A stretch of 64,000 nt of DNA from Schmidtea polychroa (lineage: Eukaryota): contig CM097885.1 in NCBI GenBank assembly GCA_044892525.1, positions 28,026,001-28,090,000 on the forward strand. The letters are read 5' to 3'. Under the pieces are notes generated by a model that was not told the origin of the DNA, searched no databases, and worked only from the letters and a program-made list of their open reading frames with translations. Made by a program: the position numbers and the translations under genes. The stretch's first letter is position 1; every line of letters begins with the position of its first letter. This document shows positions 6,992 through 64,000 of the stretch, piece after piece.

Positions 6992-7303
6992 GCAGTAGAA
7001 AAAGAGTTCAAAGAGTTAGATGCCGCTGTGCCTTTGACATACACGTAGTTACCAAAAGTGACAGTTCATTAGGCAAATGTGAAGATTACCGATTTTTAAA
7101 TTCCATCACTATCCACGACTGTTACAACGCCATTTAATACCAACATCATCAGTCAGAGTCAAAACCGACTGTAAAATTAATAACCCAAAAAATAAGGAAA
7201 AGTATTCAGTAAATAAAATATCAGGAAATAATTATTACATAATCAGTCAGAAAATTTGATATTTAAGCGTAAGTTCATCAGAAGATTTATAAAACAATTT
7301 CTA

Positions 7304-8053
7304 ATGGTCAGATATTCAGGTACTTCATTTCTAAGAACGAATTCAATTCTGAAATTCGATCTGAAACCCATCGAAATCTCGGATGAAATAATTGAGGATT
7401 TATTCGTTAGATTTCTATCCGATGTCAAGTCTTGTAAAACCAGCATGTCAGCGATTTTCTGGAGATTAGAGAAGATGTATTGGTATTATGTCGATTCAAA
7501 CAAATTGAAAGAAAAACAATCATCGCAACATTTTAAGAGATTTGTCATTGGCATTCGATACTATTTACAGGAAATTCTCCCACTCAACATTGACATTGTC
7601 AATGAATATAACAAATGGAATTATAATCGCAGATTTATACCTCGAGCTAAAGCAATTATTGTTGACGAAAATATGGAAAACGTTTTGCTTACGAAATGTC
7701 ACTATAATGACTATTATATTTTCCCCGGTGGGAAAGTAGAAGAAACCGATACGCATTTATTGGACACAGTAATCCGAGAAATCTACGAAGAAGTTGGAAT
7801 AGACCTTTCTAATGTTGTAGATGAAGATTTATATTTTGATCATGTTCAATACAGTTTACTCAGTAGATACTATGTGATTCGCAATTTCAGAAAAGACACA
7901 TTTTTACAGCCATTAGTGGACAATGAGATTCAAGTGATAAAATGGTTCCCAATAAAGGATATTCCCGATAATATGGAGCAATATAACATTTCATTAGAAA
8001 ATATCAAACTTGTTGTTAATCCTCTGAAATATATGTCAAAATATTTGAATTAA
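7304..8053 (+). CDS. Dcp2-like mRNA decapping Nudix hydrolase (short, intronless)
   Basis: Box A-like IIEDLFVRFL...IFWRLEKMYWYYVD, Nudix box FPGGKVEETDTHLLDTVIREIYEEVGID and NEIQVIKWF; first ATG at 7304 gives 249 aa. Confidence 0.85.
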   Translation: MVRYSGTSFLRTNSILKFDLKPIEISDEIIEDLFVRFLSDVKSCKTSMSAIFWRLEKMYWYYVDSNKLKEKQSSQHFKRFVIGIRYYLQEILPLNIDIVNEYNKWNYNRRFIPRAKAIIVDENMENVLLTKCHYNDYYIFPGGKVEETDTHLLDTVIREIYEEVGIDLSNVVDEDLYFDHVQYSLLSRYYVIRNFRKDTFLQPLVDNEIQVIKWFPIKDIPDNMEQYNISLENIKLVVNPLKYMSKYLN

Positions 8054-18235: not shown

Positions 18236-19216
18236 TTAAATTGTTGATGTATTCGTAGAATTTTCTTTATCTTCTATTTTTTGAGAAAACTTTATCATTA
18301 TAAACTTAGGCATCCAAACTTGTAGATATTTATTTCTAAAACTTTTCATTAGAACAATATAAACATACGGATTAATGACACTGTTTAACGCAGTAAGAAC
18401 TACTCCTGCAATACCTAGTGGTGAGCTAATTACGTACGAAGTCACTCCTAAAAATCCAAGAATGTAATATAGTGTATCATAAGCGAAACTTAAAATAAAA
18501 AACACTGTAATTACAAATGTTGATAAAGTAAACATTTTTGTTGCCTTTTGATAGCTATCAGCCTTTTTTATGGATTTTCCAACCATCATTTTTCTCAGAA
18601 AGAAATACACTCGACTATATAAATAGATGAAGAAACACGTTGGAATGACATATCCAACCATTGACCAAAGTATTGCGTACCCTTTCCAAAAGTTCTTCAT
18701 TATATCTCCATCGAATTGTGGTATTTGAATGCATGAACCATTCGGTAAAAGTCTAGATTGAAGTGTAGATGGAATTATTATTATCGAGGGAGCCAAGAAT
18801 AACACAAGGTAAGTTGTAATAATTTTCAATCGAATATTTTTTTTATAAGTTTGAGCAGTAACAACCGCCCAATATCGGTCAAAAGCCGTAAAAACTAAAT
18901 TTATGATACTCATGTGAACACTGAACCAATATATCGTCTGACTGTAAAATACTCTGCATCCAATCCAATCTATGAAATAAACTCCTGTGACATTTGGAGG
19001 TACCAAGGTTAGGAGAAATGAGATCAAGCACACATTGAAATCGATCAGTGATTGATTTCTCAACAAAAGAGTTGTGTATCTCGATTCAACGGATTTCAAA
19101 AATACCGTTACCGTAAAAGTCAAATTTCCCACCATCCCAATTACCACCAAAACAGCGAGAAAGACGTTAAAGTTTTTCAATTCAAGAACCGATAAAGGAT
19201 CATTGCTTCCTCCCAT
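18236..19216 (-). CDS. Rhodopsin-family (class A) GPCR, intronless
   Basis: Seven hydrophobic segments with TM1 GN, TM2 LID, AFDRYWAV and NSVINPYVY; first ATG at 19216. Confidence 0.9.
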   Translation of the reverse strand: MGGSNDPLSVLELKNFNVFLAVLVVIGMVGNLTFTVTVFLKSVESRYTTLLLRNQSLIDFNVCLISFLLTLVPPNVTGVYFIDWIGCRVFYSQTIYWFSVHMSIINLVFTAFDRYWAVVTAQTYKKNIRLKIITTYLVLFLAPSIIIIPSTLQSRLLPNGSCIQIPQFDGDIMKNFWKGYAILWSMVGYVIPTCFFIYLYSRVYFFLRKMMVGKSIKKADSYQKATKMFTLSTFVITVFFILSFAYDTLYYILGFLGVTSYVISSPLGIAGVVLTALNSVINPYVYIVLMKSFRNKYLQVWMPKFIMIKFSQKIEDKENSTNTSTI

Positions 19217-20429
19217 TATCAAAATGTAAATAAAATCGAAAAACTTAATATTTATAACAAATTTTCGATTAGAATTCCAATTTTACCCAATGAAATTACA
19301 TTTAGAAATTTAGCGAATCAAAAAATGCCAATACTTGATTTTTATTTGTTGTATTTTTTTTTATTTAAAAAATGAAATTATTGTATCCTGTAGCAAGATC
19401 CTGTTGAGTATTAATTCATCTTTTCATTTCTCATAAACTTAAAGTTTATCAAATGTTTTGTCTTCTACATTTTGACTTTAGATTAGAATTTTTCAAACGA
19501 TTTTTGATCATCATTCACAAGGTTGTAATGTTTTGTTTGTATGATTCAAGTGAACATGTCCAAGTTATTAAAGGTAGATATTTAAGTTATCAAAGTTGAT
19601 AGTAAAAATATGAGGTGAAAAAAATATAAAAGTTTTTTTACATAATCAGTGGCGGTACTGCAAAATTTGGACTCCCCGCAAAAGAAACAATTTCTCCCAA
19701 ATATATGTATTATATTTAACAAAGAAAAGTTAAATTTTAGATATTTATGAGAACTTAAACTCAAAAGTAAATTTATGAACTTGAATACGCAAGAAATTTT
19801 AACTTTTAGCTAATTAGGTCTAATTCATAACCGAACACACAACGTATTCAAAATTAACTAAATAATATCAATATAACCCTTGAATTCATATCAAAGATGC
19901 AAACTACGCACTAGTACAAAAATTAATACTTGAAGAATATATTTGTAAGCTAACAATAGATGCGTGAAAAGAATTTCAGTCCCTTATAGTTGGTGCTCCC
20001 CTCATCATGTAGGATCCCGTGTCCACTACTTCTGCCAATGTACATGATATAATAACAAGATTTAAGATTGATTTATTGATGAAAAAAATGTCTGAATGTG
20101 CCACATGCTTAAAACTTATTGTTGAAAAATTTCTTTCAATTTCAATAAGTGTTGAATTTTTGTTAAAAATATAAGAAAATTAAACAATGGTTTGGTCTTT
20201 CTGTTTCAAACTTGAAATGAGAACTGATATTTCATTTAGTTGAATTTTGAACACTGATAAGACAGAAATATAAAACGAACAAAGAGATTGATGTTGATGC
20301 AGTTAATAATTGGATGTTGAGGTCGTACGATGTTCCCCAAATTGTTAGGTTTCCAGATTTTTGAAAACATTTTTAATTTTCTTGTGATCAGTTGAAAAAA
20401 GGTGCTTAAATAATGTTTACATCCATCAA

Positions 20430-20555: not shown

Positions 20556-20701
20556 ATCTGTAAAAAAACTATCAGTAATTTAAATAATTAAAAAAACTTA
20601 ATAAAATAAAATAAAATTAAATGTGCATATTTCAGGCACTACAGTCATTATATAATTAAAATAAAATAAGGATATTTTTTTCAGTTGATCGCATTGCTAG
20701 A

Positions 20702-21047
20702 AGAAGAAACCGATACGCATTTATTGGACACAGTAATCCGAGAAATCTACGAAGAAGTTGGAATAGACCTTTCTAATGTTGTAGATGAAGATTTATATTT
20801 TGATCATGTTCAATACAGTTTACTCAGTAGATACTATGTGATTCGCAATTTCAGAAAAGACACATTTTTACAGCCATTAGTGGACAATGAGATTCAAGTG
20901 ATAAAATGGTTCCCAATAAAGGATATTCCCGATAATATGGAGCAATATAACATTTCATTAGAAAATATCAAACTTGTTGTTAATCCTCTGAAATATATGT
21001 CAAAATACTTGAATTAAATATTTCTATATGGAATTTATGCCAACCAA
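20702..21047 (+). pseudogene. Near-identical partial duplicate of the Dcp2-like gene 3' half
   Basis: Matches 7738-8083 (offset 12964); only one synonymous change was noticed; lacks Box A and the start of the Nudix box. Confidence 0.9.
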
Positions 21048-24608: not shown

Positions 24609-25350
24609 CCCTTAGTAGCCTGATTTACGAAAGTGATTTTTTTAATATTATTGTGTTTGCTTGAGGGTCTAAATGAAGGGAAAAATAGCTAAAAAAATCA
24701 CAATATTTATTTTACATATTTATTTAGAAAAAAAACAGGTATCAATTTTGATACTTCAGGCTTTAAGGCCATAAAGAAATCAGAAATACCTATGCATGAA
24801 ATAATGCTAAACATTGATTGTTTTTATTATCGCATAACGACACTTTACACTTTTTACAGAACCAGGAGGTAAGTTTCCTACAGTTATTAAATTTACACTT
24901 ATTTCTAGAATCCATAAAATTTTTTCATGACCAATACAATCGCAACGCACGTCAGTAGAGGGTAATACTTGTACACCTGTCCGGGGTCTTTTAGAAGGTA
25001 CTGTAGTGTCTTGTCGACTGTTGGTACTGGGTCTTCCCCTTTTATTTTTTGAGTGACTTTGATATCTACATAAAGTATCGGCAAGCTCAGTTCTAAAATC
25101 TGCTAACTTCATAATGTTCTTCTGAAGTTTTCCTTTCACTGTGTTTACCTTTTTGTATAGTACCCAAGCATTGATGACAGTCATGTTTAACAAATGGTAG
25201 AAGAGCCTCGTTGTCCACTTTCTCGACTTTATGCGGATGTGATATCGACCAATGAAGCTATCCATCAAATCAACACCGCCCATGTGTGTATTATATTCTT
25301 TTATGACCCGAGGACATCATACTTGAACATTGGCCTTTAATTTCTTTTCT
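24609..25350 (-). mobile_element. piggyBac 3' remnant
   Basis: TTAA|CCCTT terminus at 24605-24613; CPRVIKEYNTHMGGVDLMD...KWTTRLFYHLL...INAWVLY...FRTELA. Confidence 0.85.
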
Positions 25351-25466: not shown

Positions 25467-25960
25467 TTATGATCGTCTTCCTATTATTCCACCTAATAAT
25501 GATATTGCTAAAGGTATCAATGTACCGATAAATCCCCCTTGTTGTTTATTATAATTTTTCTCATTTGTTGACGAATTTTATTATTTACTAATGATGGCAA
25601 AGGTTTCCTATGTTTACTCAATAATTGATTTTTGGATTTACTGATTTTTATCTTGCCTTTGACTACTTTAAGTATAATATCGAGTAAATCATCGACAACA
25701 TAATTTGGAAATGATTGCAAAACACTGTTTCTTTTCATACTTGGTGCCTTTAACAATGTATTAAAAAACGGGAAACTCCGATGATTTTTAACAACTTTTA
25801 CTTTCTTAGTGGTTTTACTTTTAGGTTTAGGTTTAGGATTTTTCGAAATAAGATTCATTGCAGGAAACCTTTCTGTAATAAGTTCTTTAGATGGAGCATA
25901 ACTAGTTGTTGGTGGAACTTTTGATTGTTTTTTATTTGATATCCTTGTTTTTGAAAACAT
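25467..25960 (-). pseudogene. Basic pX/core-like virion protein with GG|F motif (frameshifted)
   Basis: Lys-rich ORF 25517-25960; one frameshift near 25550 continues it as NKQQGGFIGTLIPLAISLLGGIIGRRS*, an adenain-type cleavage motif plus hydrophobic helix. Confidence 0.6.
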
Positions 25961-26013
25961 GTTTTATATGTTTTCAACTTTATTTTGAACTTTTTTTATA
26001 AACCGTGGCACCT

Positions 26014-26613
26014 TTATGGGTTGAAAATATCTGTTTTTACTCGTAAGTCATGAGGACATTGTTGTGTGAAATCAAGAAATATATACCCATGCGGTATTTT
26101 CGTAGCATTTTGAAATGCATTGATAAGAAAATTACGATTATTAGGGTATGCTTGTCGTCCAAGACAATCAATGACAGTTGCATCTCTAGGAATCTTGAAA
26201 ATAACTAAATATTGTACATTTAAATTACGTGTTCGATGTGCACTACCTTGATGAAATAGATTTTGTGTTATGAAAATAACTGTTACACCAACATCTCTGC
26301 TGATTTTTGTGAATAAATTATTAAAATCTTTTTCTTTATTGGCTTCTTGATACAAATCATCGATAATGATGACATCATCTTTCTTCAAACGACTTGACCA
26401 GTTTTTATCAAATCCCTTTACTATTTTCATGTTTTTCAACTGACAGAAACTTGATTGCGTCAATCCATATTCTTCGTCGGCGCCCCTATGCCAATAAATA
26501 TTGTTGAATTTTGTTTTGAACAAATTTGATTTTAGTAATTTACAAACAAATAATGTTTTTCCGCTACCCCTTGGACCAACGATTTGGTATACTGCATCAT
26601 TTCGTAATTCCAT
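26014..26613 (-). CDS. A32/FtsK-like DNA packaging ATPase of Polinton type
   Basis: Walker A GPRGSGKT, Walker B IIIDDL, then LFTKISR, IFITQNLF, RTRNLNVQY, FKIPRD and GYIFLD. Confidence 0.9.
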   Translation of the reverse strand: MELRNDAVYQIVGPRGSGKTLFVCKLLKSNLFKTKFNNIYWHRGADEEYGLTQSSFCQLKNMKIVKGFDKNWSSRLKKDDVIIIDDLYQEANKEKDFNNLFTKISRDVGVTVIFITQNLFHQGSAHRTRNLNVQYLVIFKIPRDATVIDCLGRQAYPNNRNFLINAFQNATKIPHGYIFLDFTQQCPHDLRVKTDIFNP

Positions 26614-26677
26614 TTTTTAAATTTAAACTATATAATTATTGTTTATATTGATAATTTAAATGAAATCCGTTTTAAAA

Positions 26678-26823: not shown

Positions 26824-27288
26824 ATGCTTTCAACTATAAATTACAGGGCAAAAGCTGATGTATCAAAAATGGTATTTCTAATGGGGTAACCACAAAAACC
26901 TATCAATAGAAGTAAAAAATATCCAATAATATATTTCAAAACTGGTAAATGTAGAATTATGGGGTGTAAGGAAATAATCAAAGCTAGTGAATATAATGTT
27001 TATGATTTAGAAATACAATCGATAACCGTAACTTCCGATATGGGATTTACTTGTTACTTAAATAAATTGGCTAAATTAATACCATGCTTTAACCAACCAG
27101 AATTATGTCCAGCTTTGAGATATATAAAATATAACCCTGTGTGTGTAAATATATTCGCTAGCGGTAAAATAGTAAATCTTGGACTAAAAAATATTGATTA
27201 CGAATGTATAGTTGATAATATCATATCTGAAATTAAATCAATAATTGAAGGAAAAGAATTTTTAGATTTTTTATTATCACTTAATTAA
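26824..27288 (+). pseudogene. Compact TATA-binding-protein-like gene of the element (one in-frame stop)
   Basis: ATG 26824 in frame with ORF 26959; TAA at 26887-26889; TBP repeat motifs IYFKTGKCRIMGCK and QPELCPALRY...VNIFASGKIVNLG. Confidence 0.8.
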
Positions 27289-27535
27289 TTATTTATCATT
27301 GCAAATTCAGTGCAATTGAAATGCATAATTCTGATTGGTCGAAATCTAATTGGCTGATGATTATTTATAACAAAATGTTTTGGGTTTAGTTATCATTTTT
27401 AAATCACGTACAATATTCAAAGTTCAGCTATAGCACCGATTAAAAAGAACATGAACATTATGGTAAATTTTAATATTAATTGTATTTATCATATTATTAT
27501 TTACAGATTAATATCATGCAATAATACTGGAAAGA

Positions 27536-27811
27536 TTGTATTTTTATTACCCGCAAATGTATGATATTCTCAAAGATCGAGATGTTGCAATAATCCCAGA
27601 TTTAATTTACAATGAAACCAGAATCTGGATTTTCAATATTATCAATACATTTCTCTGGGATGTGAAGATTGGAAGAACAATGAAGGAAGTGGAAGCATAC
27701 CCTTGCATTTTGGGATGTAGCTGTTGCAATTTCCGCTACCAGAGATATGTCGAATGGTATTTCGTAAAGACACTTCGTAATTATCATTTTTGTCAAATTT
27801 TATCCAAATAA
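27536..27811 (+). pseudogene. Unknown small element gene (Cys cluster), probably spliced and disrupted
   Basis: Upstream ATTGG boxes (27334, 27349), TATA-like 27364, candidate GT-AG intron 27463-27506; ORF contains CILGCSCC. Confidence 0.35.
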
Positions 27812-27984: not shown

Positions 27985-28157
27985 TAGTTTGAAAATAATA
28001 AAAACATTAATAATAATATGACACAAATAACATATGACAATGCAACATCAATGGATTTTGAATGCAATTAAAACAAAGACATACTGCAATTTGATTGGTT
28101 TATAAACAATAGTCATAGGTATAAAAACCCTGTATCATTACAATTCAATCATAAGTC

Positions 28158-28518
28158 ATGATGACCAAGAAAATATCAAGCACTGAAAAACCAAAGGTTG
28201 TTGTTGCTGAATTTGTACAACTGTTCAAATGTTCCACAACTATAAAATGCATTTTTTAAAGAAGAAATCAATATGAAATTGGTGTCACCGATCAAGCTAA
28301 TTCTGACTAAATTTCAATTCTTATCCGGCACACTTTCAATGATAGATGTTAAATCTATTGATGATGTTTTCAAACGGTTGAATACGAATCTATCATGTAA
28401 TCAACATGCACGGTTCAACAACCGATATGCAAGATATTATGATTCCTTTGATGAAATCGGCTTCAAAGAAAACGAAAATTGGTATATAACCATTTCAATC
28501 CAAGGATATAAAGTTTAA
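28158..28518 (+). pseudogene. Unknown small element gene, frameshifted
   Basis: ATTGG 28094, TATAAAAA 28120, ATG 28158, ORF 28273-28518 and downstream AATAAA. Confidence 0.3.
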
Positions 28519-28945
28519 AATAATGATGTGTATTTCTAAAATTATGTTTGCTAGACTTTCACACCTATTTTAATAAATGTTGATATATTTAATGTATTTA
28601 TTAATTGTATTTACTCGTATTTGTTTTTTCACCTATTTAACAATGAAAATGCACCATCAGTTCAAAACAAAGACATTTTTAAACAAATATACATTATAGT
28701 TTTAAAGTTTTATAGTTAGGAAGTTGAAGAAACCAATGATAGTCAAGAAACTGATGACCCCCAAGAAATTGATAAACCTATATTAATGAAGCTAAAGATT
28801 TGGAAAATATTACAAATGATTGTATAGATCATGTCATCGAAAATGTTATGAAATGTGGAGATGACGATTGCGAATGTGGTAATTAATAAATTTTAGTTAA
28901 TTATTTCTTGTAAATTTATTTTAAAAATAAAACAAAGTAAGTACA

Positions 28946-29441
28946 TTAATTTTTATTCAAAAATCGACAAATGATATACAAGATAGCAACACCTGTTGGA
29001 AGTTTAATATAGTTTTTAAACTTTATTTTGTGCTCGTCGATTTCTTTGGCATTTCGGGCGAGTTGATTCGATACTCCCCATCCGCCATTGGCATAGATCC
29101 AATGAATATTATTAAAATATAGATTATAAAATAAATGACTTCTTGAGACCACTGGTAGTAATGTTCTGAGTCCCATAAAATTTTTTGATGATAATTTTCA
29201 TATAAGTGAATCCTACAATTATTCGGGTCCACTTCATTTCTTCGTTGAATAGGCAATTGAAGATTCGAATTAAATAAAACTTCTTTGTTTCAAGGCATTC
29301 CATATCCATCATGTTCTGGTAGTCGATATGGTTGCCTTTAATAATTCGTTCAGTCCGATTGATTAGGAAACTGAGGCTTTCCGTAATGTTTTTGTTGACG
29401 ATCTATTTTAGTAAGTTGTCAATGAAATTAGGTTTTGACAT
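28946..29441 (-). pseudogene. Bcl-2-family-like gene of the element
   Basis: BH1-like LFNEEMKWTRIIVGFTY, BH2-like HWIYANGGW, hydrophobic tail GVAILYIICRFLNKN; one TAG (29403-29405) and a 1-nt frameshift near 29130; upstream TATA (29471-29477) and CCAAT (29506-29510). Confidence 0.65.
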
Positions 29442-29782
29442 TTTTACAGTAATTTAAAATATAAAGTTTTATTTATACTACAGAATTGTGTGCCATATGA
29501 TTCTGATTGGTTGATAGACTATATGAGTTTTGTTACAATATTTCTATTGATACCCTTGTGATCAGTACCCTTGCGAGCAGTACCCTTAAGGGGACAGAAT
29601 ATCTTGTCGGATAAACTCAGAGTATCACCGTGCGCGTAATAGTAGTTATATGGTTTATATCGATGGTACAATAATTTGGGAATTCAAATTTAAAATTTTT
29701 TAAATATTTGACCTCAGATTGACCTTAAAATTTGACCTAAAAACAGCCCCTCCCCGGGGGTATGATGTAATATGTTTTCGTT

Positions 29783-29836
29783 ACGTCATCGATGACGCCA
29801 TATGTCTTTGTTCCCGGCTCCACATGTTACCCTACT
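29783..29836 (-). repeat. Polinton-type terminal inverted repeat (right end)
   Basis: Reverse complement AGTAGGGTAACATGTGGAGCCGGGAACAAAGACATATGGCGTCATCGATGACG, nearly the same as both ends of 3471-3723. Confidence 0.85.
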
Positions 29837-30290
29837 CAAATCATTGTTAGGTATCCTGAAAGTCAAATACCTATTACGTACTGTAACTTGAAAAAGACAA
29901 TATTATATTTTTTATTTTAATAAGATGTTTTAAATTTAATAATTTTCTGCGTGAGCTTCAGAAATCTAAAGATGTCAAAGTAACCCGTGGCATGGTTTGA
30001 TCTGTCCCGATCACCGACTCATTTGAAGTTGCCGCCGGGATCAATACTTGCCGAATGATAGGATCACATGAACATAACGGAACGAATTTCCAATTACTAA
30101 TTAGATAGAAAAGGATTATTATATTATCAGAAATTCTTTGAAAATTATTTACAGAAAAGTTTTACAATTGAAACTTGTTTAATTATATAATTTACAATAT
30201 ATAATTTACCAACAAGCCATGAATAATAATAATAAATAATAATAATTAATAATAAATGTTAATAATAAATAATGATAAATAATAATAATA

Positions 30291-55215: not shown

Positions 55216-58108
55216 TTAAAGTTCTTGTTTCGATTTGCATTCATTTGTAGACGGAGCAGTTGCGATATGCATTTGACGAATCTTATAGTGACCGTAGGCA
55301 TAGCTTTCATTAGAATTGAACCAATACCTTTTTTCATCCAAACATTGGAGAGCTCGTTTTTCAGTAATGAAAGTATACAACTGATGATTAACACTTCCTA
55401 TTCTCTTTTGTTGGATGCTCACTGTTCCACCATCAGTATACACTTTTTTATAGGCTTCATGGGTGATATTAGAATTTGTAAGACTTATTCCTTTGGCTTT
55501 TAGAGTGTTTTTATCTCCTTGGAGTGAGTAGCACTTGGGTCGAAGAAACACCCATTCTTTATATTGATTTCCTTTATTCTCATCCTTGAATTTCCCGATT
55601 ACCGAACAAATTTTATCTGAGAACAATGGATCAGTCACCGGATAATTTGAAGTATCTAGGAGCCCATCGGCAATCATTTTTGGATACAGTTGTAAGCGTA
55701 AATCAACATTTTTACACTCTAAAAAGAAGGAATCTGTGTCACCGGCTACGATATTAATTTGACAATTGAATTCTTCTCTATAACTCTGTAGTTCTTTATA
55801 TTGAAACTGGTACATGCGAAGTTTAGATAAATCAAGTACGGTTTGTCCAATATACATTGGTCTATCTAAACACACCATTTCCTTATCAAGTATAACAGCA
55901 ATGAGATCATCCGCAATCTTGATGCTACGACGAAACATAGGATTACTACAATAAGTTATCAATCTTTTGCTTTTGCTGCATAATCTCAAATTTATACGTT
56001 TCTTAAGGTTTTCCACGGTTTTACCATATAAACTGTTGTTCTTTAACTTATAATAATCTCGCTGAAATGAATCTGTACTAGCTGCTCTCATTTGAGTATT
56101 GTAATCAATATAGCGTTTGAAAATAGCTACTTGCTTGAATTCTACAGCACGATTAACTTTTGTGACTTTTGCGCCGTAACTCAACCACTCTGTCAAAACT
56201 CTACCATTAACTACATAGTTTTTCTTAGGCTCATGAGTTAACAACAGCTTTTCAACTTTACTACCAGGTGGATAACAAAGCTCAGGAGCTATAGGTAAAT
56301 CATCTAGCTTATCTTGTATACTATCAGGAATGACGATGTCAACCTCTAGAACATATCCACGATCTCCATCAAACTCATCCCCATTTGCACATCTTTCAAC
56401 AATACCATTCATTTCAGTATGATCATTTATCCATCTAAATTCACCAATAGGAAGTTTTTGCGACAGCGCCCATCCATATAAATTATTAACATCTAGGTAT
56501 GACATTTGTGTTGATTCATCAGCTTCAACATGATGTTTGTTGATAAATGTCATTCCACCACGAATACCAGCTTCAAATAAACGGTAAAGCTCTGGATCTT
56601 GAATAAGTTCTACCGGTTCAGGTAACTGTTTAATAGCTGATGCCCAACTTAATCCGGGTATGGAAACAAACGATAAAGCCTCAAGTCCATCTTCGTCAAA
56701 TGTTTTTTCTCTGAAAGCTTCAAAAACATCGGCCAACACAAAAACATCCAACTTGAGATATACTAGCATGTAATCTAGCAGTGTCTCACAGTTATATTGT
56801 CGCCAGATTTGATTTGCATGTATATAATCTTCTTGACTAACTCCCTCCCAAATCGATGGTAATTCTGTTATTGACTGTAAAACATCCATTGACGTAGCAA
56901 TATCATAAGGAAATATGCCTTTACCAGTTATTAGATGCGAATTGAAAATCTTTGAAGTAAGTGGAAGACGTGGCAAGTTTTTTGATAAATTTGCCAAGCT
57001 GCTATTTAAAAATTGTAAAGAATCAATGAATCTAATTCTTCTGCCTTTCGATGTCGCTGTAAGTGTGAGAAACTTTTCTGTTGATTGAGGAATAACAATT
57101 AAATTCCAATCTGGGAATTTTCCAATTGCATATTTTAATATATGATGAATGTCATATCCACGAAGATTATGAAATACAACAGGTAAAGACGGATTGATTC
57201 TTCTAGCCAAATTACAATCTTGACACGCTGCTCCGAGATATTGACCAGTAAAATGATCATGATCTCGAACGGGTATATTGATAATCTTTTTACAAAGGTA
57301 GCAATGAGTTTGAGTCGTGAATTCTTCCTGCTCTTCCCAAGTGAGTTCCATCATTTCCTTTGATCCATTAATTTTATACCACGGATAAACTATGTCTGTA
57401 GCTATATCATCCAATGCTTGTATGAACTGAATGATACAGTTTTTCCCAACAAATGTTTCATTTCGGATCGGACAACCTTGATGGAGAAGCACAAATTCAG
57501 ATGCAATCGGCTCATGTTTTTGGAAGTGTTTGTCATCTAGAGGTAATATCGATTCAAAGTCCGCGTAGACAACAAACTGCTGTTTTATAGTTTTACTCCA
57601 ATCTTTAAATTCGATATATTTATTCTCTGGCATTGAGTATAGAGTCGTACGCTCCACATTCTTCCTACAAAGACCTATATGTCTTTCAAAAGCAGGACGT
57701 TTTTGAAACCCATGAAGACACGTATGACACCAATGTGATTGGATTCTGACTCCTTCTACTCTATCTCTGTAATTCAGCAGTCGATCGAGATTAGTTACAG
57801 CCAAAAAATGATAATTTAATTCTAAATTTAGTTAATATTTTTAATGATTAAAGGAAATATTACCTTCTTCAATCAATAGGAGATATATCTGAGATCCCGT
57901 CGAAGTACTTCTATATACCAAGTCAATGAACGGATTCTTGAAAATATCATTAGTTTTTTGTTTAATTGGATCTTTATTATATTTGAGAACATTGATCGCT
58001 AGATTTGGATTAATTGCTTCAAATTGGCAAATGTTAACCAACTTCATCGGAAACCATTCAAATTTCCATTTTAAGTCTTAAAAACAAAATTCAATGATTT
58101 ATGACATT

Positions 58109-58193
<85 letters not shown>

Positions 58194-59265
58194 CCACTTA
58201 AGTTATATTTTGTTGTTCTTTCTCTATTCCGACGTATATCATCATAACGTAACACAGCTAGTATGCTATATAAAAAACAGAATTGATCATTGTTTTGAAC
58301 ATTAACTAAAGCCTGACAGTTTTTCAGGTAATTTGGCGTTTTAATGTAACTTGAACCTAAGTAATCTCTTGATTTATATATATATAATAATGTAAATAAT
58401 CTTACCAGATACATGTATTATGTCTGATAATTTAGTTAAAATCATAGTAACTTCTAATATTTTATGAATTCTCCACCCACTACTTTGTTGAGTGTATTTC
58501 TCCAACTTTTCTTTTAATTTTTCAATTCCATCATTAATAAATGAAGATGACATTGTAATTGCTTTATTCGACAAACACCATTTTTTAATTTCACCATCCT
58601 CTTTGATAAACTCTGCACAAAGTCCAAATTGGATTTTTACTGTCCCCATTCGTTGAATATGATCTTCTATTTCTTTGATGAGACAATCTGGAACAACAAT
58701 GTCAGGAGAATTAATTGCAGATACATCGCTTGTCAATTCAACACGAGAACCGTTTAAGTCAGACTCCCGACGTGGACACAATTGTATGTTAGAGTCTCCA
58801 TTTCCGTAAAATATTGACTTTCGTTTTGTGGTGCCAGAGTTTTGTCTAACTATATTTATAATTAATATTAAACAACTTAAATAACATAACTTGTAACATA
58901 TTCTTTAATCTCCTTAGGATCGTATGATGTATTCATTTTCGATTGTACTATAAAAAATTAATAATTGTTAATAGTAGAAAGAGTATTACTTTTAGTGATC
59001 ATCCTGCTCTTCGTTTCTTCGAATCTTCTAAGATGGTGTCCGTGTTGTCGTACAAACATTAACCACCTACCTGGTGTTATAATGAGACATTCCGGACATA
59101 TGTAACCCGATAAGGTAGAGTCATTTATCTTGAAATATGATGATGTAACTGATTTACAGTTCTCCACATCTTCATGACTTTCGGCAATACAAAATTTATA
59201 TAAACTGCATCCGTTCACTAAAAAATAATCATTAATATTAGATAGAGAATAAAAATTTATTCACT
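55216..59265 (-). CDS. Protein-primed DNA polymerase B (Polinton/Maverick type) with endonuclease VII-like insert; about 1236 aa after splicing
   Basis: YADFES, FHNLRGYD, KGIFPY, YLKLDV, YLDVNNLYG, KLKNNSLYGKT, GDTDS, GKFKDE, KAKGI; CxxC..DHDH..G..CxxCN; N-terminal SSGW and GSSY..NNDQFCF motifs. Predicted introns 59218-59264, 58948-58989, 58850-58890, 58357-58405, 58077-58194, 57822-57863. Confidence 0.92.
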
Positions 59266-60426
59266 TATATAAGTTAAATTAAAAGTTTAAATGACAAACA
59301 TTTGAAAAGTTACTGCTTATATATTACACATGATTAAATTCTGACCAATCAAAATCAAGGAAGGGGTAGGAAAAATAAATATATTCTGACCAATCAAAAT
59401 CAAGGAAGGGGTAGGAAAAATAAATGCATTACATTGCAGTATTTTAAAACTTAAATTTTAAAACACATTTTGACGCTAAAGTTGACTTATTTAACATTTT
59501 CATAATAATTTAATAAAAATAATGTGTTGAACTCACAAAGTAATATCATTTTTTTTCATCAAATTGCAAAACAGTAATAACGTTTTCATAAAATTGTAAC
59601 AAAGTAATAACATATTTCAGATAAATTTTCAACAGTTGTAAAATATTTATCAAATTGTAACTAAAATAATAAAAATATTGCAACAAAGTAATAAAATAAT
59701 GATGTTAATTGGGACAAATCAATACATTATTTCGAAGACGGACAACAAATTAAAAAAGAATATTGTAATAAATTGTGAAGTCTTTCAGTAAATTACAACA
59801 AAGTAATAACATATTTCGGAAATATTTCACCAGATGTAAAATATTTAAGCAAATTGTTATAAGATTATAAAAATATTGCAACAAAGTAATAAAATAATAC
59901 AACATTTTAAACTCTAGATCAATCCATTTTATAGAAAATTAAATTTTATCTCTATAATATATGAATAAATATACAAGGAAATTACGTTAACGTATAATAA
60001 AACATGTGTGTATTACACACAAAACAAGATACATAATTTCTAATCAATCCATTTTATAGAAAATTAAATTTTATCTATATATTATATGAATAAAATCCTA
60101 AGAAAATTACGTTAACCGCGCGAAAAATACAAATTTATCGTAAAAACATGTGTGTATTACACACAACATACGAGACATAATTTTTAATCAAGCTATTTTA
60201 TAGAAAATTAAATTTTATCTATATATTAAATGAATAAAAATCCAAGAAAATTACGTTAACCGCGCGAAAAAATACAAATTTATTGTAAAAACATGTGTGC
60301 ATTACACACAAAGCACCAAACTGAAATTGTAATTGCGCCGTGTTGTAGAGAATTAAATTCTGCCTATACATGGTTACACTTAAATCTCGATCAGACCTGT
60401 GAAAAGAGACATAAAAGATAAAAAAC
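58397..60426. repeat. Left arm of a large inverted duplication (extent limited by window end)
   Basis: Reverse complement of 61972-64000; mirrored coordinates sum to 122397/122398. Confidence 0.95.
59317..59425 (-). promoter_or_regulatory. Pol II-type promoter of pPolB
   Basis: TATATAA at 59317-59323 (minus); CCAAT at 59345 and 59390 inside a 45-bp tandem duplication; mirrored at about 62972-63080. Confidence 0.6.
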
Positions 60427-60720
60427 AGTAGAGTAGTATGATGTGGGCCCGCCCGGCCAGGAGCCCGCTCGGCCACATATACCCCCTCCCCCCGTGTGTA
60501 AAATAATGTTAATAATAATATTTATATATCAGTAGATAGATCTCGCACTGGGCCTTAAAATGAGCTATAGATCAATAAAATCTGTTGGTGGGAACATTAA
60601 GTTTTGAGCAAACGAAAACCAGGAGCCCGCCAGACCACTTAATAATATTTTTTGAAAATAATAATGATTTATGAGTCATCGTATGAGTCATCGAATGAGT
60701 CATCGTTCTAAAAATACATG

Positions 60721-60777
<57 letters not shown>

Positions 60778-60981
60778 TTCTTGGGAGTTGTAATAATAAT
60801 TCTTTGAAAATATCTTAGTCATTATTAATAATACTAATAATACCCTAGCGAGTTGTTGATTGTGAGTAGTACCCTTGTGTGCAGTACCCATGTGACTTGT
60901 TGAGTGTGAGCAGTACCTTTGTGAGCAATACCCATAGGGGGACAGAATATCTTGTCGGATAAACTCGGAGTATATAATAAT

Positions 60982-61041
<60 letters not shown>

Positions 61042-61971
61042 CAACGATTTAAACAAATTAAATTAATATGTAATCGATAATTAAAACAAAGATTATTAGT
61101 TCTAAAATTATTAGGCATCATTCTAAAAATATGACGTAATCATTCTAAAAATATGTGGCATCGTTCTAAAAATATGTGGCATCGTTCTAAAAATATGAGT
61201 CATCGTTCTAAAAATATTAGGCATCGTTCTAAAAATATGATGTAATCATTCTAAAAATATTAGGCATCATTCTAAAAATAATAGACATCGTTCTAAAATT
61301 ATGATGTAATCGTTCTAAAAATAATAGACATCGTTCTAAAAATATTTGGCATCATTCTAAAATATTAGAAAACATTCTAAAAATGTGATGAGTCATTGTC
61401 TTTGTTCTAAAAATGTGATGAGTCATCGTATGATAAAAATCTATATCTCATTAGAAAGTTCTTGCACAGAGCTTTAAAATAAGCTATCGATCAATATAAT
61501 ATGTTGGCGGGAACAATAATTTTTGGGATGAAAAAAAGTAGGTCCCCGCTGGATCACTTAATAATATTTTGAAAAATAATAATAATTTAACGTTGAAAAG
61601 ATGGTGGTCATCAATTGTTAATAACATTAAAACTATTAAAGATATATATGATACCTATAGCTCATTCGAAAGGTCTTGGACTGAGCTTTAAGATGAGGTA
61701 TCGGTTAATAAAATTTGTTGGCGGGAACATTACTTTTGGGAAGAAAAAAAGTAGGTCCCCGCTGGATCACTTAATTTAAAAAAAATTACGTAATAGTTCT
61801 AAAAATATTAGGCATCGTTCTAAAAATATTAGGCATTGATTACGTAATAGTTCTAAAAATATTAGGCATCGTTCTAAAAAAAAATAAAATTTTTTCCCGG
61901 GGGGGGGGGGAGGGGGTATATGTGATCTGGAGGGGACATGGCCGGGGGAGCCCACATCCTACTACTCTACT
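60427..61971. mobile_element. 1545-bp non-coding cassette with Polinton-type AGTAG termini at the palindrome centre
   Basis: Begins AGTAGAGTAGTA, ends TACTACTCTACT; ~65-bp imperfect GC-rich TIRs; shares a 36-bp block (35/36) with 29590-29625. Confidence 0.75.
61096..61420. repeat. About 15 tandem copies of a ~21-bp unit CATC(G/A)TTCTAAAAATATnnnn
   Basis: Seen directly; further copies at about 60701 and 61796-61880. Confidence 0.9.
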
Positions 61972-64000
61972 GTTTTTTATCTTTTATGTTTCTTTTCACA
62001 GGTCTGATCGAGATTTAAGTGTAACCATGTATAGGCAGAATTTAATTCTCTACAACACGGCGCAATTACAATTTCAGTTTGGTGCTTTGTGTGTAATGCA
62101 CACATGTTTTTACAATAAATTTGTATTTTTTCGCGCGGTTACGTAATTTTCTTGGATTTTTATTCATTTAATATATAGATAAAATTTAATTTTCTATAAA
62201 ATAGCTTGATTAAAAATTATGTCTCGTATGTTGTGTGTAATACACACATGTTTTTACGATAAATTTGTATTTTTCGCGCGGTTAACGTAATTTTCTTAGG
62301 ATTTTATTCATATAATATATAGATAAAATTTAATTTTCTATAAAATGGATTGATTAGAAATTATGTATCTTGTTTTGTGTGTAATACACACATGTTTTAT
62401 TATACGTTAACGTAATTTCCTTGTATATTTATTCATATATTATAGAGATAAAATTTAATTTTCTATAAAATGGATTGATCTAGAGTTTAAAATGTTGTAT
62501 TATTTTATTACTTTGTTGCAATATTTTTATAATCTTATAACAATTTGCTTAAATATTTTACATCTGGTGAAATATTTCCGAAATATGTTATTACTTTGTT
62601 GTAATTTACTGAAAGACTTCACAATTTATTACAATATTCTTTTTTAATTTGTTGTCCGTCTTCGAAATAATGTATTGATTTGTCCCAATTAACATCATTA
62701 TTTTATTACTTTGTTGCAATATTTTTATTATTTTAGTTACAATTTGATAAATATTTTACAACTGTTGAAAATTTATCTGAAATATGTTATTACTTTGTTA
62801 CAATTTTATGAAAACGTTATTACTGTTTTGCAATTTGATGAAAAAAAATGATATTACTTTGTGAGTTCAACACATTATTTTTATTAAATTATTATGAAAA
62901 TGTTAAATAAGTCAACTTTAGCGTCAAAATGTGTTTTAAAATTTAAGTTTTAAAATACTGCAATGTAATGCATTTATTTTTCCTACCCCTTCCTTGATTT
63001 TGATTGGTCAGAATATATTTATTTTTCCTACCCCTTCCTTGATTTTGATTGGTCAGAATTTAATCATGTGTAATATATAAGCAGTAACTTTTCAAATGTT
63101 TGTCATTTAAACTTTTAATTTAACTTATATAAGTGAATAAATTTTTATTCTCTATCTAATATTAATGATTATTTTTTAGTGAACGGATGCAGTTTATATA
63201 AATTTTGTATTGCCGAAAGTCATGAAGATGTGGAGAACTGTAAATCAGTTACATCATCATATTTCAAGATAAATGACTCTACCTTATCGGGTTACATATG
63301 TCCGGAATGTCTCATTATAACACCAGGTAGGTGGTTAATGTTTGTACGACAACACGGACACCATCTTAGAAGATTCGAAGAAACGAAGAGCAGGATGATC
63401 ACTAAAAGTAATACTCTTTCTACTATTAACAATTATTAATTTTTTATAGTACAATCGAAAATGAATACATCATACGATCCTAAGGAGATTAAAGAATATG
63501 TTACAAGTTATGTTATTTAAGTTGTTTAATATTAATTATAAATATAGTTAGACAAAACTCTGGCACCACAAAACGAAAGTCAATATTTTACGGAAATGGA
63601 GACTCTAACATACAATTGTGTCCACGTCGGGAGTCTGACTTAAACGGTTCTCGTGTTGAATTGACAAGCGATGTATCTGCAATTAATTCTCCTGACATTG
63701 TTGTTCCAGATTGTCTCATCAAAGAAATAGAAGATCATATTCAACGAATGGGGACAGTAAAAATCCAATTTGGACTTTGTGCAGAGTTTATCAAAGAGGA
63801 TGGTGAAATTAAAAAATGGTGTTTGTCGAATAAAGCAATTACAATGTCATCTTCATTTATTAATGATGGAATTGAAAAATTAAAAGAAAAGTTGGAGAAA
63901 TACACTCAACAAAGTAGTGGGTGGAGAATTCATAAAATATTAGAAGTTACTATGATTTTAACTAAATTATCAGACATAATACATGTATCTGGTAAGATTA
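61972..64000. repeat. Right arm of the large inverted duplication (runs off the window)
   Basis: Mirror of 58397-60426; ORFs 58958-59218 and 63179-63439 encode identical peptides. Confidence 0.95.
63132..64000 (+). CDS. Second copy of the pPolB gene, 5' exons (truncated by window end)
   Basis: Predicted introns 63133-63179, 63408-63449 and 63507-63547 join MNGCSLYKFC...ITK-IQSK...YVT-IRQNSG...DIIHVSG. Confidence 0.85.

Follow-up and report, generated by a model that had tools for sequence, protein, structure and literature searches.

The gene at 28946..29441 (minus strand) of the window, by which we mean the whole stretch of 64,000 nucleotides that was analyzed, is read here as a dead copy of a tail-anchored Bcl-2-family gene, likely with two exons, whose intact product would likely be a viral-type apoptosis inhibitor. 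This reading as a whole seems to us probable; the Bcl-2 ancestry, judged from motifs and family matches, is very probable. The gene-bearing element is Maverick/adintovirus-like and highly repeated, and the gene is filed as a divergent member of the Bcl-2 family, not as an orthologue of canonical Bcl-2/Bcl-xL. The window copy is broken at three places. Coordinates of the gene parts and of neighboring element features are collected in Table 1.

Table 1. Parts of the Bcl-2-like gene and associated element features, with positions in the window
Feature	Position	Strand	Remarks
Very high-copy terminal/subterminal segment	29557..29625	+	Most copies end at 29625; second copy at 60905-60973
TATAAA box and CCAAT-type box	29472..29511	-	Upstream of the ATG; promoter-like, putative
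Putative exon 1	29140..29441	-	ATG to W-S-Q-E; helices up to BH1 (KWTRIIVGF) and start of helix 6
Likely intron, 5' part (phase 0)	29101..29139	-	GT start, 90% A+T; 3' end missing in the window copy
Putative exon 2, remainder	28946..29100	-	BH2 WIYANGGW, linker, hydrophobic anchor, basic tail, stop
Third break	29093..29100	-	Window about 30 nt shorter than other-copy contig; splice acceptor and first exon 2 codons absent
Broken small acidic ORF with Cys-rich tail	28643..28889	+	Convergent with the Bcl-2 gene; contig-linked in other copies
Broken element ORF	28039..28518	+	No Pfam match; high depth in other copies
TBP-like ORF (interrupted)	26890..27288	+	Pfam TBP E 1.2e-9, 38.3 bits, cut-off 22.9; head-to-head with the ATPase
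A32/FtsK-like packaging ATPase	26014..26616	-	Pox_A32 E 6.9e-5, 22.9 bits, cut-off 22.8; also matches other P-loop families
Basic ORF, and short G-G-F-hydrophobic stretch	25467..25963	-	No Pfam or PHROG match

Family identity and exon structure

The ATG at 29441 (minus strand) opens a frame in which codon 13 (29403-29405) is a stop, after which it continues as LFNEEMKWTRIIVGFTY; a different frame of the same strand gives HWIYANGGW and a hydrophobic tail, then RFLNKN and a stop at 28946. The motifs lie where the earlier note had placed them, and the Bcl-2 resemblance that it reported is real: BH1, BH2 and a tail anchor are present, and Pfam, PDB sequence matches and the ESM Atlas concur. The BH1 pattern of the family (hydrophobic-F/C ... 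W-x-R-hydrophobic helix) is found and aligns with BH1 of Bax and Bak, its W and R being invariant in all eight sequences (the window and seven relatives). For BH2 (W-I-x-x-x-G-G-W) the counterpart is WIYANGGW, which aligns to BH2 and is linked to BH1 via the putative splice only. The C-terminal tail has the hydrophobic stretch and basic residues of a Bcl-2 anchor, on the short side (best Kyte-Doolittle means 1.85 over 15 residues and 1.66 over 17, followed by R and K).

When the two breaks recognized in the earlier note were bridged with X along its reading path, Pfam Bcl-2 was the sole match (E 2.4e-4, 22 bits, under the cut-off of 31.4). The frame-1 piece alone gave Pfam Bcl-2 at E 0.0094, and no Bcl-2 match appeared among the other 25 ORFs put through the same Pfam scans. 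Scores overall were 15.9-22 bits against the gathering cut-off of 31.4, with queries that were all partial or partly off-frame. A PDB sequence search (116 matches in total at E<=1) gave 59 Bcl-2 family members among the 60 matches listed, the best being Bax 5W63 (E 0.002). No family match was found for the C-terminal piece alone; a structure model of exon 1 only was all-helical, with five helices and low confidence (pLDDT 62.8, pTM 0.44), and fold searches with it returned nothing significant.

Homologue searches yielded three clusters (three matches among 20 candidates) at 62-71% identity, with seven proteins in total. All seven have Pfam Bcl-2 as best or only match (E 0.0008-0.02, below cut-off). 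For one of them, P0002, the first ESM Atlas match scored 0.93, with 211 of 256 features in common and a cluster that is 46% PF00452, on a scale where 4-10% of shuffled proteins reach 0.9; further rows led to clusters with Poxv_Bcl-2-like (11%; second row) and Adeno_E1B_19K (20%).

The relatives also bear on the gene model. All are called as ORFs of 103-112 aa, and none found in the homologue searches is full-length (through BH2). Aligned to the window by tblastn, each of the seven gives two segments, which lie in different frames and have 62-71% and 82-92% identity. After YMKIII all of them follow the window's third frame (DSEHYYQWSQE; local scores 68-97, versus 10-17 for the other frames), reach W-S-[QL]-E and stop 3-13 residues later, with variable, low-complexity tails past WSxE. 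The earlier note had joined BH1 and BH2 into a single ORF across a 1-nt frameshift. Since the relatives use the third frame, LRTLLPVVSRSHLFYNLYFNNIH either lies out of frame or belongs to an intron, and splicing of the gene is likely. An intron is proposed because the relatives stop early after WSxE, which it explains; the likely structure is two exons with some 160 codons, separated by an AT-rich intron of about 40-45 nt. The expectation that a single genomic frame of intact copies would hold both BH1 and BH2 thus failed, with 7/7 relatives stopping before BH2, and the Bcl-2 assignment nonetheless stands because splicing accounts for that early stop.

Local sequence and other copies are consistent with this structure. 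GT follows WSQE directly, at 29139, and the A+T fraction of the next 39 nt is 0.90, versus 0.67 and 0.64 in flanking sequence. Contigs of other copies cease aligning at 29138-29140, and others cover the exon 2 remainder. On the coding strand, a pyrimidine run, AG and an open frame can be read by eye in one X1 contig and in three sets of loose ends, and the single gap-spanning contig continues in frame into the window's ANGGW. Spliced in this way, the BH2 Trp would fall 12 residues past the WSxE Trp, equal to the WTLD...WI spacing in the aligned Bax chain, and the H of HWIY likely derives from the intron. One relative, P0002, has G and not V after WSxE, which fits a phase-0 GT less simply than do the other six. 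The comparison used contigs from four runs (X1, X5, X8 and X15, the RNA label of the last two being a guess) aligned on 28000-29900; the data are contigs only, and a spliced junction was seen in no read.

The earlier note counted one stop and one frameshift in this copy, to which a third break must be added. At the stop, within exon 1, all seven relatives have a residue, and at position 29405 every covering contig (X1, X5, X8) carries a letter other than the window's. The frameshift is also in exon 1, in an A/T run near 29180-29190. At the third break one X1 contig has 39 letters between 29092 and 29101 versus the window's eight, and five X1 contigs and 12 X5 contigs have loose ends at 29101, as four X5 contigs do at 29092.

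The element that carries the gene

The gene belongs to a decayed cassette of about 25.3 to 29.7 kb that also contains an ATPase, a TBP-like ORF and several small broken ORFs. An A32/FtsK-like packaging ATPase, a Maverick hallmark, is among them, its score just over the cut-off. Polymerase, integrase, cysteine protease and capsid genes were not found among the scanned ORFs of 24-29.4 kb, and Maverick membership is tentative for a copy that is truncated and has one end in the window. A fragment of a piggyBac transposon truncates the cassette on its left side, at about 25.3 kb. This fragment (24618-25316), which adjoins the left break, starts with TTAA and then CCCT and matches DDE_Tnp_1_7 (E 6e-12). 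Within the cassette, the G-G-F-hydrophobic stretch at 25467..25963 is one that we take to resemble pX-like virion core proteins, and an ORF at 27512-27811 (plus strand) has a C-x3-C-x-C-C cysteine cluster, no family match and a CCAAT-type box ahead of it at 27329.

Contigs from other copies tie the gene to its neighbors, bridging its 3' end to the acidic ORF (three records) and reaching from its 5' end into the promoter boxes and terminal segment (four records); the earlier suggestion that the element carried the gene is borne out. In X1, 11,039 contig pieces lie on 1.9 kb (28000-29900), most of them 90-95% alike, and summed depth, which is not copy number, is 60,910-591,628 over the gene versus 302 at 29856-29900. 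The summed depth shows a highly repeated, diverged family.

The 69-nt segment at 29557-29625 is 90% identical to 60905-60973 and has the highest depth in 28000-29900. Loose ends at 29625, running into AT-rich or (AAT)n sequence, occur in 136 X1, 102 X5 and 21 X8 contigs. Since contigs leave at this position, 184 nt from the ATG, many copies end there. The gene had been described as lying next to the element terminus: this is a rough placement, as the window copy, like one X1 contig, extends past 29625. The segment may be the end of a TIR or a separate small element. Self-BLAST of the window found no inverted partner of the element end, only one end being in the window.

The gene has its own CCAAT and TATA boxes, as had been claimed, about 65-70 nt (CCAAT) and 31-36 nt (TATAAA) upstream of the ATG. 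Taken singly, both boxes are common in the AT-rich window (CCAAT in 11.7% of 100-nt windows, TATAAA in 5.4% of 40-nt windows). The longer box TTCTGATTGGT has eight matches (<=1 mismatch) versus 1.8 expected, a number reached in 0 of 100 shuffles, and seven of the eight fall inside the two virus-like elements. In X1, X5 and X8 there are also contigs that join ~28070-28082 to 29502, both near CCAAT-type boxes; the Bcl-2 gene and two of its neighbors are missing from these. Some element copies, then, do without the Bcl-2 gene.

The window as a whole is AT-rich (GC 21-35%) and of animal type, with microsatellites and transposon fragments. A pPolB ORF of 871 aa at 55216-57831 (DNA_pol_B_2 E 4e-32), whose product includes a zinc stretch like that of endonuclease VII, lies 26 kb off, and no link between it and the gene-bearing copy was seen. 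The left arm of a 2.1-kb inverted duplication (58397-60493 and 61905-64000, 99.4% identical, flanking 1.4 kb of 21-nt tandem repeats) runs into the pPolB gene; the duplication may represent a pair of elements placed head to head, or one palindromic element. A single-ORF rhodopsin-family 7TM receptor at 18236-19282 (minus strand; 7tm_1 E 4e-19) is probably a host gene, and a Dcp2-like Nudix ORF at 7232-8053 (plus strand; DCP2 E 3e-7) has a 349-nt piece duplicated 13 kb away, at 20699-21047, with 99.4% identity.

Possible roles of the intact product

In the mechanism proposed for intact copies, host spliceosomes would excise the short intron in helix 6, giving a protein of about 160 aa; its C-terminal tail would insert it into the mitochondrial or ER membrane, where it would restrain host Bax/Bak-type effectors during replication of the element. 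The exon-1 sequences of all eight (window and relatives) contain no BH3 motif of the form [LIVFM]-x3-[GAS]-[DE], and so not the L-x3-G-D of Bax/Bak, an absence that speaks against a Bax/Bak-type killer. In all eight sequences the BH1 motif is WTR, not WGR, so that the Gly of the NWGR of canonical Bcl-2/Bcl-xL is absent. With Thr in its place, the groove is predicted to bind narrower or different BH3 ligands than that of Bcl-2/Bcl-xL. According to the accessible text of PMC8998228, changes in NWGR can close or alter the BH3 groove, and in Trichoplax Bcl-2L4 a functional groove is unlikely without this Gly. Given the change, anti-apoptotic action is not assured.

Because the NWGR Gly is Thr throughout, the main rival is a protein that keeps the Bcl-2 fold with a rewired job, binding no BH3 ligand and acting on innate-immune signalling or autophagy; we regard this as unlikely, if less so than the other alternatives. 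Some poxvirus Bcl-2-fold proteins do act on such other host pathways. The stretch from BH1 to helix 6, by eye about five residues shorter than in the Bax chain, would suit a changed function, as would the Poxv_Bcl-2-like content of the second Atlas row. The retention of BH2 and a membrane tail, on the other hand, fits a membrane-bound apoptosis regulator, and in mouse Boo a Ser at the same Gly alters BH3 selectivity with binding kept (PMC8998228, accessible text). A broader proposal, more doubtful still, is that a Maverick lineage with a rewired, spliced Bcl-2 (novel intron position, fixed BH1 Gly-to-Thr) expresses it from integrated copies as a blocker of cell death specific to the element, and that this, together with the element's own mini-TBP, lets the element reach very high copy number in host stem/germ cells.

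Another possibility, which we consider improbable, is that a host Bcl-2 fragment was captured with its intron and amplified with the element as passive cargo, without serving it. The putative intron, the decay of the window copy and the gene-less derivatives in three runs are all compatible with this. If the gene were mere cargo, relatives differing by up to 36% of residues would hardly be expected to hold exon 1 open with BH1 invariant, as they do: the three clusters have mutual identities of 64-84%, and in all of them exon 1 is open and WTRI unchanged. Three of the six listed differences within the gene between contigs and window are synonymous (by eye), the CCAAT-type box is common to the gene and other element genes, and the family's usual intron after GGW is absent, all of which likewise speak against passive cargo.

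That the gene is a cellular Bcl-2 pseudogene merely sitting next to the element, or that its likeness to Bcl-2 arose by chance, is largely refuted and very improbable. Sub-cut-off Pfam scores, the low-confidence exon-1 model and the lack of a family match for the C-terminal piece alone would be expected under this explanation, but depth is 200- to 2000-fold over the unique flank, contigs bridge the gene to element sequence, and three independent methods (Pfam, PDB sequence search, ESM Atlas) name Bcl-2. Least probable of all, by a little, is that the unspliced BH1-only product of 103-112 aa is the real protein and the downstream BH2 and tail a relic, for although 7/7 database relatives are called at that length and no full-length one was found, their tails past WSxE are variable and low-complexity, other copies retain an AG acceptor, followed by a frame that stays open into BH2 at the right spacing, and the source contigs of the relatives are short (500-1603 nt), with ORFs probably predicted by gene finders that take no account of introns.

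Comparison with known systems

The preferred reading, a spliced and tail-anchored apoptosis inhibitor carried by a Maverick-like element, has partial precedents. Homologues of Bcl2 and IAP have been observed in adintoviruses, with three Bcl2 labels in panel B of Suppl. Fig. S2 (Starrett et al., 2021, PMC8502044, in its main text and readable supplement), and the genomes of most adintoviruses associated with mammals seem to contain genes for anti-apoptotic homologues, candidate oncogenes or both (preprint PMC11071296, as far as accessible). The present gene is similar in being an accessory Bcl2 homologue of a Polinton-type element with an FtsK/A32 ATPase as neighbor class. It differs, in a comparison by description only, in its putative intron, none being mentioned in the main text and readable supplement of PMC8502044, where the word "planaria" is also absent.

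With the cellular family (PF00452; Bax 5W63, Bak, Bcl-2, A1/Bfl-1 and schistosome 3QBR/7JMT) the gene shares the order and spacing of BH1, the helix-6 W-[ST]-x-[ED], BH2 and the anchor; it departs from that family in having WTR and not NWGR, no BH3 motif and a length of about 160 aa. The Bcl-2 family has a conserved exon boundary at GGW (PMC8998228, accessible text). Unlike canonical Bcl-2/Bcl-xL, the window gene has no GT donor there and its frame continues to the tail, the putative intron lying about 16 codons upstream, in helix 6.

Adenovirus E1B-19K, which restrains Bax/Bak for the virus (PMC11209288, in the portion available), would be an analogue as a small Bcl-2 homologue of a linear dsDNA virus-like genome with predicted restraint of Bax/Bak, but the Atlas lead to the E1B-19K-containing cluster is weak (0.85). 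The same portion of that review has no mention of polinton, adintovirus or intron. BCL2-like motifs are also known from the planarian Burro LTR retrotransposons (PMC6431247, accessible text), which likewise place a Bcl-2 motif on a high-copy mobile element. In Burro, by the same accessible text, the domain is part of a Gag-Pol polyprotein, whereas the window gene stands alone, is putatively spliced and has an ATPase of A32 type and a TBP-like gene for neighbors.

Since Burro carries BCL2 too, Bcl-2 cargo alone is no proof of a viral lifestyle or of a virion stage. The viral lifestyle proposed in the earlier note is compatible with the data, but the gene does not discriminate in its favor, and in this copy no capsid gene was found among the scanned ORFs of 24-29.4 kb. 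A literature search covering few subscription journals did not turn up any account of a Maverick with a spliced Bcl-2.

With the cargo class already published and the window copy dead, the gain is incremental. The intron, if true, would mean that such elements need the splicing machinery of the host, and that their accessory genes come out too short from gene callers blind to introns. WTR in BH1 offers a natural variant for studies of BH3-groove selectivity. Should intact copies prove to have a working gene, this would be a further Polinton-type element that manages host apoptosis, as adenoviruses do with E1B-19K.
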